The translations under genes were made by a program, and so were the position numbers. Source: Escherichia coli (GTDB taxonomy: Bacteria; Pseudomonadota; Gammaproteobacteria; Enterobacterales; Enterobacteriaceae). From it: DNA of 64,000 nt. This document shows, piece by piece, positions 25,217-29,545 of this stretch. The notes under the pieces are model-generated. The model was not told where the DNA came from, did no database searches, and saw nothing but the letters and a program-made list of their open reading frames with translations. The DNA is taken from assembly GCF_030384885.1 (NCBI RefSeq), contig NZ_CP128613.1; one strand, given 5' to 3'. Each line of letters begins with the position of its first letter. Position 1 is the first letter of the stretch.

Positions 25217-25290
25217 GAAAAAGGCCACTCGTGAGTGGCCAAAATTTCATCTCTGAATTCAGGGATGATGATAACAAATGCGCGTCTTTC
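25217..25290 (-). ncRNA. micA: MicA (SraD) small regulatory RNA
   Basis: Minus-strand reading gaaagacgcgcatttgttatcatcatccctgaattcagagatgaaattttggccactcacgagtggcctttttc matches the MicA sequence I recall, ending in a ggccactcacgagtggcc hairpin plus U-run; lies between gshA and luxS. Confidence 0.8.
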
Positions 25291-25358
25291 ATATACTCAG
25301 ACTCGCCTGGGAAGAAAGAGTTCAGAAAATTTTTAAAAAAATTACCGGAGGTGGCTAA

Positions 25359-25874
25359 ATGCCGTTGTTAGATAGCTTCACAGTCGATCATACCCGGATG
25401 GAAGCGCCTGCAGTTCGGGTGGCGAAAACAATGAACACCCCGCATGGCGACGCAATCACCGTGTTCGATCTGCGCTTCTGCGTGCCGAACAAAGAAGTGA
25501 TGCCAGAAAGAGGGATCCATACCCTGGAGCACCTGTTTGCTGGTTTTATGCGTAACCATCTGAACGGTAATGGCGTTGAGATTATCGATATCTCGCCAAT
25601 GGGCTGCCGCACCGGTTTTTATATGAGTCTGATTGGTACGCCAGATGAGCAGCGTGTCGCTGATGCCTGGAAAGCGGCAATGGAGGACGTGCTGAAAGTG
25701 CAGGATCAGAATCAGATCCCGGAACTGAACGTCTACCAGTGTGGTACTTATCAGATGCATTCGTTGCAGGAAGCGCAGGATATTGCGCGTAATATCCTGG
25801 AACGTGACGTACGCATCAACAGCAACGAAGAGTTGGCGCTGCCGAAAGAAAAGTTGCAGGAATTGCACATCTAG
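25359..25874 (+). CDS. luxS: S-ribosylhomocysteine lyase (AI-2 synthesis)
   Basis: Track ORF 171 aa; metal-binding HTLEH motif. Confidence 0.95.
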
Positions 25875-25887
25875 TCAATTGAAGAGG

Positions 25888-25918
25888 CCGGGCAGGTGAT
25901 ATCACCGCCCGGTTTTTA
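25888..25918 (+). terminator. Intrinsic terminator of luxS
   Basis: ccgggcaggtgat/atcaccgcccgg stem followed by tttttatt; the stop codon of the convergent minus-strand gene lies inside the T-tract. Confidence 0.75.
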
Positions 25919-27031
25919 TTACCTGTCAGTCACCCGATATTCCACGCTATGTGCTTCATCAGGTTGAGGAACTTCCAGCCTTGAGGCCATCCGCATCACG
26001 ACCGCTTCAGGAACGGCATACTCGCGCCTGGCATTTTGCTGCTTCCATTGCGCCCATGGCACTTCCAGATAAACGATTTTTACTCGTGCGCCGTAAGCCG
26101 TAAACAGACTGATGAGCTGGCTACGCAGTTGGCGGGTAATGTTCGTTGCATTCCAGATGAACGGCTTTTTCTGGCGTAAAAAAACGCGCGCCTCTTCTTT
26201 TGCCTGTTGCACAATACGCCCGGTCGCGGTTTTGTCGTCCGGGCTGGCATTGATTCGCCGCCGCATATCATCAAGGCTGATAACGTCCATTCCCTGGCAC
26301 TGTTCACTGATATAGCGATCTTTGCCCATACCCGGTAAGCCACACAGCAAAATGACCTCAAAAGGTTCAGCCTCCCAGGGAACAAAATCAGGAGAACTTT
26401 GTTCATGGGTCAGATAATGCCAGCGTGCGGAATCAGACACGAACGAGCGCACTTTTCCCCAACACTGTTGCTCCTGGCAAAATAGCTCGAACAGATCGAT
26501 GCGTTCCAGCATTGATTGCTGATCATGACAATGGCGACCAAGCAGATCGGCACGAGCAAGCAAAGCGAGCAGACGCGTGTCGATACGCATTGCAGCCGTG
26601 AGCAGCAAACGCTCCGGTTCCGGACGTTCTAGTAACCATAGCGGTAACCCATGCAGACGCACCAGTGCAACAATTTGCTCGCGTAGCACGAACGGCGTCG
26701 GGATATCGCGCCATAAAATTTGTCGGGCCGTCAATTCACCCCGACGAGCATGACCAGGAGACTGAATACGTCCGTTTTCCTGCACGGTAGTACTGCGCTT
26801 TTCAACGTCATGCAATAACGCCGCCGCCCATAAAATTTCCTGCTGCTGAGCGGGGAGTTGCTGGAACTCTGGCAGAGCCACGAGTGCATTCAGCACCATT
26901 TCAGTATGCACACCAACGTCGCCTTCACCATGATGCTCCGGGTCTTGCGGCGTATTATGCATATCCTCAACCCAGCTAAAACGCTGGCGTAGCGTCGACC
27001 AGCGTTTGTCGTCGGTAAGTTGCCAAATCAT
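25919..27031 (-). CDS. HD phosphohydrolase fused to a P-loop polynucleotide-kinase-like domain (HD-Pnk-like end-healing enzyme)
   Basis: Track ORF 370 aa: N-terminal HD signature ([10 protein letters not shown] ... LLHDVEK); C-terminal P-loop CGLPGMGKD followed by DDMRRR, the Asp/Arg arrangement seen in T4 Pnk-type 5'-OH kinases; ATGA overlap with the upstream ligase-like gene. Confidence 0.6.
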
Positions 27032-27735
27032 GACTGTTCTCCATAAGCGAACTCATGGGCCATCCGCGCCCGTCGCCAGTGGCGTTTCCAGTGCTCGGTG
27101 GTTTTGACATGATTTTTGCGTACATACTTGAAGACGTTATGCGAAAAGTCAGCGACGGAAAACGCATCACTATTCCGGCTGACAATGCCTTCCAGCGTAC
27201 AGGGTTGTCCGGTTTGCGTATCCCAGGGATCGAACGCACCGCGCGCATTGGTCAGCGCCAGAAAATCACGTTGCCAGCTTTTTTCATCATTCCCCGGCTG
27301 CGGGCCGGAGATTTCGGGAACGCAGGGGAAATCAAACAGAGCGGCGTAAAACTGCACCTCTTCCCAGCTCAGCCACATATCCTGGCAGCGAACGGCAAAC
27401 AGATAAAAATCCTGCTCCAGGGCGCGATATTCAATCGAATGAACGGCATAAAGATTTTCACCAAACAACTCCAGATCGCCGAGATCGTTTTTCAGCAGTT
27501 GCCAGCGTTGGCGAATTTTATAGGTCCATGCCGATTGTGTAGGCGCGGCATGGGAACGGGCAAACACGCCGTAGCGGTTAAGGCAGTTATTTTCACCGTC
27601 GAGTTTTTCAGTATGTACCAACTGCGAAATTGCCTGCATATCTTGCCAGTAACTGGCGTTAATGCGGTCATCGCTGGTGGTGCCAGGGGAGAAGGGGTAA
27701 TGCCAGGTTCTCCCGTATTTACGTTGGGTATTCAT
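27028..27735 (-). CDS. ATP-dependent RNA/polynucleotide ligase-like nucleotidyltransferase, Rnl2-like motif I
   Basis: Track ORF 235 aa: motif I TEKLDGEN (K-x-D-G-x-N), then [12 protein letters not shown] (motif III-like), EGIVSRN (motif IV-like), [10 protein letters not shown] (motif V-like) in canonical order. Confidence 0.6.
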
Positions 27736-27951
27736 AATAATCCATTATTTTTTGTGTAATAAACGTACGCCCGCGAGGGTGCGAGTTATGGGGTTAAAAA
27801 AAATGTGAGTATCACCCGCGAAAGCGAGGGCGAAGAAAAAAGAGAATTAACAACCTGAGCGAATGCTCAGAACCGGTTAATGGTGAATGGAAGAGTTTGG
27901 AGCGGCGAAAAGATACACCGTTTGAGATGATAAAACAACCGTTTACAGAAT

Positions 27952-27982
27952 GAGCAAATAAAAAGGGAGCCGCAGCTCCCTT
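27952..27982 (-). terminator. Intrinsic terminator of emrB
   Basis: On the minus strand, gggagctgcggctccc hairpin followed by a U-run (plus strand aaataaaaagggagccgcagctccc). Confidence 0.7.
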
Positions 27983-27990
27983 TAACAACC

Positions 27991-29529
27991 TTAGTGCGCA
28001 CCGCCTCCGCCGCCACCTGCGCCAAATGGCGGTTTAGCAAACCACACCAGCCCCAGCAGGACGAGGAATATCCCGGCTGACATCCAGAAGATCTCATTGG
28101 CGGAAATAATCAGCCCCTGATTAGTGATCTGCTGGGCAATCCAGCCTGATGCCTGTTGTTGCGTCATCCCCAGCCCTTCCAGTTGGCTGTACATCGCCTG
28201 AGCGTTCGGGTTAAACGGGTTTACCGACTCGGTTAACTGTGCGTGGTGCATCGACTCGCGGTTAGTCCACATGGTGGTGGTGATGGATGTGCCGATAGAC
28301 CCCGCCAGCGTTCGCGTAAAGTTAGAGAGGCTCGATGCCGCCGCCAGTCGCTCCGGTGGCAAACCAGACAGCGTAATGGTGGTCAGCGGCATAAAGAAGC
28401 AGGCCACCGCGAAGCCCTGGATAAACTGCGGCCAGGCCGACGCGCCAAAATCCATCCCCGGTTCAAAGGTATAAGCACGCCAGTAGAAGCAGACGGCATA
28501 CATGATAAAGCTGAAGGTTACCAGTCGCCGCATATCCAGTTTATGCGCGAAGCGGCCGATAATCGGCGACAGGATCACCGGAATAATCCCTACCGGCGCA
28601 GAGGCAAGCCCCGCCCAGGTTGCTGTATAGCCGTAGACTTCTTGCAATAACTGCGGCAGCAGAACAATCGCGCCGAAGTAGAGCATATACGCGAGGCTGA
28701 TACACAAGCAGCCGATGGTGAAGTTGCGCGATTTAAACAACGACAGATCCACTATCGGATTATCGTCGGTCAGCTCCCAGACAATCAGGAAGCAGATAGC
28801 CACCACCGCCACCACGGTGAGGATGATTATTTCCTGCGATGAGAACCAGTCCAGCTCTTTACCGCGGTCGAGCATAATCTGCAGGCTGCCGATACCAATC
28901 ACCAGCAGTGCCAGCCCCACGGCATCAATCCGCCGCCGTTCGGTGCGGGTTTCGCGTCCGCGCAGGGTTTGCAGTGTCATCAACACCACCGCCACGCCAA
29001 TCGGCACGTTGATGAAGAATATCCAGCCCCAGTGGTAATTATCGCTGATATAACCGCCGAGGATCGGGCCGCAAATTGGCGCGACAATCACCGTCATCGA
29101 CCACAACGCCAGCGCGATCGAGCGTTTTGCTGGCGGGTAGTTATTCAGCAATAGACTTTGCGAAAGCGGGATCAACGGCCCGGCGACAATTCCCTGAATC
29201 ACGCGGAAGAAGATCAGCATATTCAGGCTGCTGGAGACACCACACGCCCACGACGCAATAGCAAAGGCGATGGTCGACCAGAGGAACAGCTTCACTTCCC
29301 CAACGCGCTTTGCCAGCCAGCCGGTAAGCGGGATCGAGATGGCATTCGCCACCCCGAAAGAAGTGATTACCCACGTTCCCTGGCTGAGCGATGAGCCCAG
29401 ATTCCCGGCGATAGTGGGGATCGCCACGTTAGCAATGGTGGAGTCCAGCACCTGCATGAATGTCGCCAGTGACAGCGCAATCGTCATAATGACCAGTTGC
29501 GCGCCTTCCAGCGGTTTTTGCTGTTGCAT
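27991..29529 (-). CDS. emrB: Multidrug efflux MFS transporter (DHA2 family)
   Basis: Track ORF 27991..29538; 14-TMS-type MFS; start refined to MQQQKPLEGAQLVIM. Confidence 0.9.
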   Translation of the reverse strand: MQQQKPLEGAQLVIMTIALSLATFMQVLDSTIANVAIPTIAGNLGSSLSQGTWVITSFGVANAISIPLTGWLAKRVGEVKLFLWSTIAFAIASWACGVSSSLNMLIFFRVIQGIVAGPLIPLSQSLLLNNYPPAKRSIALALWSMTVIVAPICGPILGGYISDNYHWGWIFFINVPIGVAVVLMTLQTLRGRETRTERRRIDAVGLALLVIGIGSLQIMLDRGKELDWFSSQEIIILTVVAVVAICFLIVWELTDDNPIVDLSLFKSRNFTIGCLCISLAYMLYFGAIVLLPQLLQEVYGYTATWAGLASAPVGIIPVILSPIIGRFAHKLDMRRLVTFSFIMYAVCFYWRAYTFEPGMDFGASAWPQFIQGFAVACFFMPLTTITLSGLPPERLAAASSLSNFTRTLAGSIGTSITTTMWTNRESMHHAQLTESVNPFNPNAQAMYSQLEGLGMTQQQASGWIAQQITNQGLIISANEIFWMSAGIFLVLLGLVWFAKPPFGAGGGGGGAH

Positions 29530-29545
29530 CACACGCACCTCTGGA

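Follow-up and report, generated by a model that had tools for sequence, protein, structure and literature searches.

In a 64,000-nucleotide stretch of the Escherichia coli chromosome (contig NZ_CP128613.1; called the window below, with position 1 at its first letter), the gap between luxS and emrB is filled by two minus-strand genes, on which the list of open reading frames and the sequence itself agree. They encode a putative RNA ligase and a protein, here called HD-Pnk, in which a predicted HD phosphoesterase is followed by a P-loop polynucleotide kinase. Our reading of this cassette, to which we would give a probability of roughly 55%, is that it forms a coupled operon for the repair of broken strands, the likeliest target being translation-machinery RNA that has been cut by ribotoxins. 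The features of the locus are as follows.

25359-25874, plus strand: luxS, one flank of the gene pair
25886-25917, between the stop codons of luxS and HD-Pnk: GC-rich hairpin CCGGGCAGGTGAT/ATCACCGCCCGG followed by five T residues, found by sequence inspection
25919-27031, minus strand: HD-Pnk gene, 370 amino acids, "ATP-binding protein" in RefSeq
27028-27031, minus strand: ATGA overlap, with the ligase stop codon TGA over the HD-Pnk start codon ATG
27028-27735, minus strand: ligase gene, 235 amino acids, WP_001097123.1, "RNA ligase family protein" in RefSeq
27736-27961, minus strand: 5' leader/promoter region of 226 nucleotides (nt), conserved across Enterobacteriaceae genera
27962-27983, minus strand: intrinsic terminator of emrB from a terminator scan, which parts emrB from the cassette
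27991-29538, minus strand: emrB, the other flank of the gene pair

The window matches the chromosome of E. coli 2013C-4282, the source strain, at 100%, and the RefSeq record of that strain has the same two coding sequences. The shared stop and start codons imply that ligase and HD-Pnk are translationally coupled, which suggests a fixed ratio of the two proteins, and these may form a complex. The hairpin at 25886-25917 is likely a terminator shared by luxS and HD-Pnk, and it was missed by a simple terminator scan because its stem holds a bulge. The GC content of the cassette (0.52 to 0.55) is like that of its flanks in the window, the RefSeq annotation of the locus contains no insertion sequence (IS) or integrase near it, and a search for flanking repeats around it gave only short matches at chance level, nothing meaningful. 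On all of these points the original prediction, made from the sequence alone, has held. It had described two minus-strand genes filling the gap and coupled by an overlap, with host-like GC and no integrase, repeats, or IS adjoining them, and it had stated that emrB and luxS are adjacent in K-12, where the K-12-type spacer measures 63 bp.

HD-Pnk, a predicted phosphoesterase-kinase fusion

The HD-Pnk protein divides into an N-terminal HD phosphoesterase domain (residues ~20 to 190) and a C-terminal P-loop polynucleotide kinase domain (~222 to 360). In Pfam, the protein matched AAA_33 with an E value of 6.6e-32 and gave a weak match to HD (E = 0.014); PF01966 is recorded for many of its homologues. 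Among the NCBIfam models, HDIG (E = 4.8e-4) and the HD region of the CCA-adding/repair enzyme (E = 6e-5) were found on the N-terminal part, and bacterial Pnkp (bacter_Pnkp) and PSTK on the kinase part. The sequence matches in PDB were the Clostridium thermocellum Pnkp (CthPnkp) kinase and T4 Pnk. In the AlphaFold 2 model (predicted local distance difference test score [pLDDT] of 91.5), the kinase superposed on CthPnkp 4gp6 (TMt 0.73), T4 Pnk 1ly1 (0.72), and mammalian PNKP, and the HD half resembled the tRNA A-/CCA-adding enzyme 3wfp.

When the homologues were aligned, H34, H74-D75, H94, H127, and D162 of the HD domain were invariant, as were K237, D254, and R257 of the kinase, with D254, the putative catalytic Asp, aligned to the catalytic Asp of CthPnkp. 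The P-loop reads GLPGMGKD (residues 231 to 238, window positions 26318 to 26341), so that the Walker A lysine is followed by Asp where Ser/Thr is usual. These profile and fold comparisons give good support to the assignment of HD-Pnk as a fusion of HD phosphoesterase and P-loop polynucleotide kinase.

A minimal RNA-ligase-type nucleotidyltransferase

The ligase matched PF09414 (RNA_ligase) with an E value of 5.3e-28 over the whole model (2 to 171 of 171; protein residues 38 to 205), and no other family was found in the Pfam scan. The motif I lysine is K44, in EKLDGEN. In an alignment of 30 homologues, EK44LDGEN, FGE93NLY, F113, E182-G183, and F202-K203-x-V-R206 were invariant, with motifs III, IIIa, IV, and V assigned by inspection, and an N-terminal signature of 17 residues was likewise invariant. 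The AlphaFold model, of moderate confidence (pLDDT 74), consists of the nucleotidyltransferase fold with short tails and is without an accessory domain. Its top fold matches were all RNA ligases (NgrRnl with an E value of ~3e-6, T4 Rnl2, archaeal Rnl3, and fungal Trl1-LIG), whereas DNA ligases were 2 to 3 orders of magnitude worse in E value; the TM-scores of ~0.5 apply to the nucleotidyltransferase domain alone. The protein is thereby well supported as a predicted stand-alone RNA-ligase-type nucleotidyltransferase. Profile searches put both proteins in the families expected from their motifs, and a placement in unrelated families, which would have counted against the original prediction, did not appear.

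The Rnl5 ligases (Naegleria NgrRnl and Deinococcus DraRnl) and T4 Rnl2 share PF09414 with the E. coli protein and are its best fold matches, although sequence identity to them is only 17 to 21%. To seal nicks, Rnl5 relies on an OB domain at its N terminus and Rnl2 on a C-terminal domain. Because the E. coli ligase has neither, we place it outside the Rnl5 and Rnl2 families, in a distinct and minimal clade.

A search of the ligase sequence against PDB returned mollusc hemocyanins alone. These matches were treated as spurious and disregarded because each matching stretch had an E value of ~1 and the total was summed over repeated units.

Relation to known end-healing and sealing systems

An operon of this kind is known from Runella slithyformis, where the HD domain at the N terminus of HD-Pnk is a 2',3'-phosphoesterase and the C-terminal part a 5'-OH kinase. 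A putative ATP-dependent ligase lies directly upstream, the 3' end of its open reading frame overlapping the 5' end of HD-Pnk (PMC6097658). The original prediction had pointed to this operon correctly. Gene order and overlap are the same in E. coli. The Runella cluster also has Tpt1 and a methyltransferase-HIT gene (PMC6097658), whereas the E. coli cassette is made up of two genes alone. Among the top 120 entries of a protein search started from the Emticicia protein, none was named Runella. The E. coli proteins were compared with those of Bacteroidota related to Runella, Emticicia, Dyadobacter, and Chryseolinea among them, and identity was 54 to 60% for HD-Pnk and 52 to 63% for the ligase.

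A second relative is found on the MP1 plasmid of Deinococcus radiodurans, where DR_B0100 encodes the ligase, DR_B0099 a TIGR02452 macro-like protein, and DR_B0098 HD-Pnk. The E. coli and D. radiodurans ligases are 36% identical over their full length (E = 2e-28) and share the N-terminal signature KY..H.P.SPG...DDR. The two HD-Pnk proteins (the MP1 coding sequence at L087 27656-28897) are 29% identical, with both domains aligned (E = 3e-31). The Deinococcus system differs in the TIGR02452 gene that separates the pair, in its location on a megaplasmid, in its reported DNA damage phenotype, and in the P-loop, which is a classical GSGKS rather than the GMGKD of E. coli. Because the Runella arrangement matches and the Deinococcus proteins are homologous, we regard the cassette, by sequence, as the E. 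coli member of the known Runella/Deinococcus-type HD-Pnk/ligase operon family. This operon has been described biochemically since 2017, and what is new is the copy in E. coli; a literature search for luxS and emrB together with RNA ligase found no paper linking them.

The likeness to T4 Pnkp plus Rnl1, proposed originally, is one of logic more than of enzymes. The scheme of three activities (healing of the 3' end, phosphorylation of the 5' end, and sealing with ATP), predicted for the cassette, and the kinase fold are common to both. However, the T4 phosphatase is of the HAD type and the phosphoesterase of E. coli HD-Pnk of the HD type, Rnl1 has a C-terminal tRNA-binding domain while the E. 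coli ligase has no C-terminal domain, and Rnl1 is a weaker fold match (E ~4e-4) than NgrRnl and Rnl2 (E ~3e-6 to 1e-5), which brings the ligase nearer to Rnl5/Rnl2 than to Rnl1. Kinase, phosphoesterase, and ATP-dependent ligase also occur together, for RNA repair or splicing, in Pnkp-Hen1 and in fungal Trl1 plus Tpt1, as predicted for the cassette, and the best sequence match of the HD-Pnk kinase domain is CthPnkp. Pnkp and Trl1 are, however, single trifunctional polypeptides with a phosphoesterase of the metallophosphoesterase or 2H type, whereas the cassette has two proteins and the HD type. TIGR04075 matched the kinase region of HD-Pnk alone, at 33 bits versus a cut-off of 750, and no Hen1 methyltransferase adjoins the E. 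coli cassette, its neighbors being luxS and emrB.

Conserved pairing and RNA repair neighbors

To describe the neighborhoods, HD-Pnk relatives were scanned in one genome per species, which gave a match in 391 species; the counts below refer to the best 80 of these hits, which represent 33 groups at genus level within Enterobacterales and Bacteroidota. In all 80 loci a homologue of the ligase was found directly upstream of HD-Pnk and on the same strand; the pair is co-conserved throughout this set, and the lack of co-conservation that would have counted against the original prediction was not seen. The ligase is the better conserved of the two (~63% identity from E. coli to Bacteroides, versus ~56% for HD-Pnk).

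An RtcB gene directly precedes the pair, on the same strand, in 23 of the 80 loci, and in 13 of the 80 a full prfH stands between rtcB and the ligase; the gaps between the RtcB/PrfH genes and the ligase were 5 to 83 nt in the loci checked. These RtcB-preceded loci include all five from Serratia and many from Bacteroides, Parabacteroides, Phocaeicola, Dysgonomonas, Mucilaginibacter, and Flammeovirgaceae. RtcB2-PrfH is known to rescue and religate ribosomes whose 16S rRNA has been cut by colicin E3 (PMC9304027, PMC9223846). In Dysgonomonas sp. ZJ279, Tpt1 (RNA 2'-phosphotransferase, 265 bits) lies between prfH and the ligase, and this cluster unites the Runella-type Tpt1 context with the RtcB-PrfH context. 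RlaP is added in a metagenome-assembled genome of Flammeovirgaceae. The two clusters are arranged as follows.

L081 2526-7113, Dysgonomonas sp. ZJ279: basic protein, RtcB, PrfH, Tpt1, ligase, HD-Pnk
L022 1610-8854, Flammeovirgaceae metagenome-assembled genome: RtcB, RlaP, RlaP-like protein, ligase, HD-Pnk, RtcB

In Bacteroides xylanisolvens XB1A, a 24-amino-acid remnant of prfH persists between rtcB and the ligase (L084 5171-5242), which suggests a secondary loss of prfH in loci with the order rtcB, ligase, HD-Pnk. Among more distant relatives of the ligase, two long proteins, P0416 (1,083 amino acids) and P0417 (650 amino acids), are fused to Pnk-type kinases, in the architectures ligase-Pnk-type kinase-ligase and ligase-ligase-"Swiss Army Knife" DSP-type phosphatase-kinase. 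With the exception of one chimera that probably stems from a frameshift, no fusion of the ligase to HD-Pnk was found among the long relatives of the ligase.

The RtcB2-PrfH system and the cassette (by prediction) both concern breaks with 2',3'-cyclic-phosphate and 5'-OH ends, but RtcB uses GTP and joins 3'-P and 5'-OH ends directly, and the predicted chemistry of the cassette is different. The PrfH/RtcB literature that we searched lists other accessory genes, and the ligase/HD-Pnk pair is not among them. The 64-kb window contains neither rtcB nor prfH. The role in RNA repair that had been proposed for the pair is backed by the rtcB, prfH, Tpt1, and RlaP neighborhoods of other taxa and not by its surroundings in E. 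coli.

These neighborhoods also bear on a different substrate. In a DNA repair role, HD-Pnk would heal the 3'-phosphate/5'-OH DNA ends left by oxidation or by nucleases, with the nicks then sealed by the ligase. Such a role is suggested by the homologous operon on the D. radiodurans megaplasmid, by the fold match of the HD-Pnk kinase to mammalian PNKP, a DNA repair enzyme, and by two cited papers, at least in their titles, one calling the Runella protein a "DNA/RNA end-healing enzyme" and the other tying Deinococcus HD-Pnk to radiation and mitomycin C resistance. However, the informative conserved neighbors are all RNA repair genes (RtcB, PrfH, Tpt1, and RlaP), no DNA repair gene recurs beside the pair in the 80 loci, and the ligase points to RNA both in its only Pfam family and in the lead of RNA ligases in the fold search. 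The Runella ligase, in addition, sealed no DNA nicks (PMC6097658). We consider DNA breaks an unlikely target of the cassette.

Distribution, selection, and origin of the cassette

The cassette is present in 995 of 5,426 complete E. coli genomes, and in these carriers it is always found at the luxS-emrB site of the chromosome and never on a plasmid. Genomes without it have a luxS-emrB spacer of 63 bp, which has nothing in common with the cassette except the two stop codons. In some of these cassette-free genomes the short spacer carries an IS30 or IS200C insertion. The allele of the window (25300-28700) is unique among the 5,426 genomes, the source strain alone being at least 99% identical to it, and the other E. 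coli carriers are ~94 to 95% identical over this region. Synonymous divergence (dS) within E. coli is higher in the cassette (0.17 to 0.28) than in luxS (0.14).

Outside E. coli, the order emrRAB, ligase, HD-Pnk, luxS, gshA was found in Klebsiella spallanzanii, Enterobacter sp., Superficieibacter, and cryptic Escherichia, and the pair directly follows emrB in Phytobacter, Kosakonia, and UBA3516. Identity of these lineages to the window proteins is 81 to 86% for the ligase and 72 to 78% for HD-Pnk, and in the same genomes the flanking proteins are 82 to 85% (EmrA) and 86 to 88% (GshA) identical. Because seven lineages share the site and divergence is like that of the flanks, ancestral presence followed by repeated loss is more likely than insertion. 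The cassette has probably long resided at the emrB-luxS junction of Enterobacteriaceae and been lost repeatedly, so that most E. coli lineages are now without it; its transfer through homologous recombination of the flanks is possible. The original prediction had taken the module for an accessory insertion into a core junction, probably not a recent one. The presence/absence polymorphism is real, and the lack of a recent insertion fits vertical descent at the junction, but the insertion itself is unlikely in view of the shared site and the flank-like divergence.

The polymorphism could also be that of a mobile, horizontally acquired module serving in antiphage defense or derived from phage counterdefense. 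Both proteins match PHROG families. The pair also occurs in a 462-kb uncultured phage (LR756500.1; L086 4856-7059), in which an HNH-ligase fusion of 364 amino acids is directly followed by an HD-Pnk of 368 amino acids that is 35% identical to that of E. coli, and ligase relatives are present in other jumbo phages. The high identity (55 to 63%) between Enterobacterales and Bacteroidota hints at past transfer as well. Set against this, neither protein matched any PADLOC family at E ≤ 0.01, a scan of IMG/VR with the motifs of the bacterial clade gave no confirmed relative, and no E. coli carrier has the cassette on a plasmid; the locus lacks integrase, IS, and repeats and has host-like GC. Different genera of Enterobacteriaceae carry the cassette at the same chromosomal site, and its divergence follows that of the flanks. 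A mobile defense module is, on balance, highly improbable.

We regard as equally improbable that in E. coli the cassette is in decay and no longer functional, the explanation that its absence from 82% of complete E. coli genomes might bring to mind, together with the 10-bp frameshift described below. Among intact alleles, the ratio of nonsynonymous to synonymous divergence (dN/dS) within E. coli is 0.07 to 0.13 for both genes (at the dS of 0.17 to 0.28 given above), and that of the ligase is 0.04 between E. coli and Klebsiella; by this measure both genes are under purifying selection. About 89% of the carriers are free of the frameshift, and the leader and the ribosome-binding region are conserved across genera.

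The frameshift is caused by a 10-bp deletion, TGCCAGGATA, in the ligase of 108 complete E. coli genomes, all among the 995 carriers and including Nissle 1917, ATCC 25922, ABU 83972, and clone D. In ATCC 25922 it lies in the ligase at L003 3233-3930, which corresponds approximately to window positions 27378-27387, and HD-Pnk is intact in this strain, the sole genome of the lineage examined. From its sequence, the Nissle 1917/ATCC 25922/ABU 83972 lineage is a natural ligase-null lineage. RtcB2-PrfH alone protects ATCC 25922 from colicin E3, and the strain is still sensitive to colicins E5 and D (PMC9223846).

Proposed role in the repair of broken RNA

In the repair pathway that we propose, the HD domain would remove 2',3'-cyclic, 3'-, or 2'-phosphates to leave a 3'-OH, and the P-loop kinase of HD-Pnk would phosphorylate the 5'-OH to a 5'-phosphate. 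The ligase, adenylylated on Lys44, would then activate this 5'-phosphate and seal it to the 3'-OH. The data show domain homology, catalytic residues that are intact, two genes that are strictly paired and under purifying selection, and a recurrent association with RNA repair genes; what the E. coli enzymes do, that they act on RNA, and that the break is sealed are inferred. Support for an RNA substrate is moderate, and RNA of the translation apparatus is the most likely one because of the neighborhood evidence (RtcB, PrfH, Tpt1, and RlaP); the sealing step and the link to ribotoxins are inference. The kinase and phosphatase fusions of distant ligase relatives and the jumbo phage with its ligase-HD-Pnk pair also speak for the proposal.

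Several observations weigh against this proposal. The P-loop ends in GKD, not GK[ST], in 235 of 238 close relatives of HD-Pnk, and the ligase is devoid of an accessory domain for binding nucleic acid. Loss of HD-Pnk in D. radiodurans reportedly confers sensitivity to ionizing radiation and mitomycin C (a result attributed to Schmier and Shuman, 2018), a phenotype that suggests work on DNA. The cassette and rtcB2-prfH are not linked in E. coli and differ in distribution, being present in 995 and 4,204 of the 5,426 genomes, respectively; these are overall counts rather than a comparison genome by genome, and the second includes any match, full length in about two-thirds of the rows sampled. The ligase is broken in ATCC 25922, the very strain in which RtcB2-PrfH protects from colicin E3. 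Finally, the Runella ligase adenylylates but sealed no DNA or RNA substrate with 3'-OH/5'-PO4 ends among those tested (PMC6097658), which leaves the sealing that the original prediction ascribed to the pair as a putative activity.

The behavior of the Runella enzyme, which forms enzyme-AMP and then fails on conventional ends, could mean that the ligase-like protein is itself unconventional. Its substrate might have to carry a 2'-PO4,3'-OH end, as that of fungal Trl1 does, with Tpt1/KptA then clearing the phosphate from the junction, or it might stop at 5'-adenylylation or another AMP transfer, in which case the task of the pair would be to mark or process RNA ends and not just to rejoin them. 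The bare nucleotidyltransferase domain and the Trl1 ligase domains among its fold matches agree with this, as do the presence of Tpt1 in the Runella cluster, its place in Dysgonomonas with prfH on one side and the ligase on the other, and the macro-like TIGR02452 gene between ligase and HD-Pnk in Deinococcus. Yet Tpt1 is not nearby in most loci. Runella HD-Pnk reportedly removes 2'-phosphates as well (in work credited to Munir and Shuman, 2017), an activity that would destroy a 2'-PO4 end. An unconventional ligase seems to us unlikely.

Repair of ribotoxin-cut RNA remains the reading we prefer, and it has an extension that we offer tentatively, as a speculation with a small chance of being correct. 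The pair might be the ATP-dependent second arm of a ribotoxin damage repair network that includes RtcB2-PrfH and Tpt1/KptA, in which it would handle the tRNA or rRNA breaks that are beyond sealing by RtcB. The bare ligase may then need a 2'-PO4,3'-OH end or a substrate embedded in the ribosome or in tRNA. Such a need, if true, would explain the failure of the Runella enzyme on 3'-OH/5'-PO4 substrates, and bacterial Tpt1 would gain its long-missing substrate.

The leader and other features of the locus

The conserved leader of the ligase contains the following elements.

27938-27933 (TTGTTT) and 27915-27910 (TATCTT), minus strand: candidate promoter with a 17-nt spacer, proposed from conservation only
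27891-27886, minus strand: UCCAUU, invariant, predicted to pair with AAUGGA at 27746-27741 over the ribosome-binding site
27871-27854, minus strand: hairpin CUGAGC-loop-GCUCAG, invariant

A scan for the sigma-70 consensus upstream of the ligase called no promoter. The minimum free energy of the leader has a z-score of -3.3, no covariation was found in it, and its structure is unproven because the paired bases never vary. In the speculative network described above, such a leader could, by hiding the ribosome-binding site, make the operon responsive to translation damage. A 13-nt direct repeat, TTAACAACCT(G/T)AG, occurs at 27847-27859 and 27982-27994, 135 nt apart, with one copy at the emrB stop codon and the other just past the conserved leader hairpin. 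The Rfam scan found MicA alone and no family match for the leader; this small RNA (RF00078, 83.9 bits) lies on the minus strand at 25219-25290, in the gshA-luxS interval, as expected for the locus.

Significance

If the cassette turns out to be an ordinary backup for RNA repair, the finding would amount to a useful upgrade of the annotations "RNA ligase family protein" and "ATP-binding protein" for the two genes. With an intact copy in its genome, E. coli makes both the role of the HD-Pnk/ligase operon and the substrate of its ligase testable, as a tractable organism that offers natural cassette-free strains such as K-12, a natural ligase-null lineage, and the full toolkit of colicins and contact-dependent growth inhibition toxins. 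The recurrent adjacency to rtcB-prfH, Tpt1, and RlaP directs the first of these tests to ribotoxin damage of the translation machinery.

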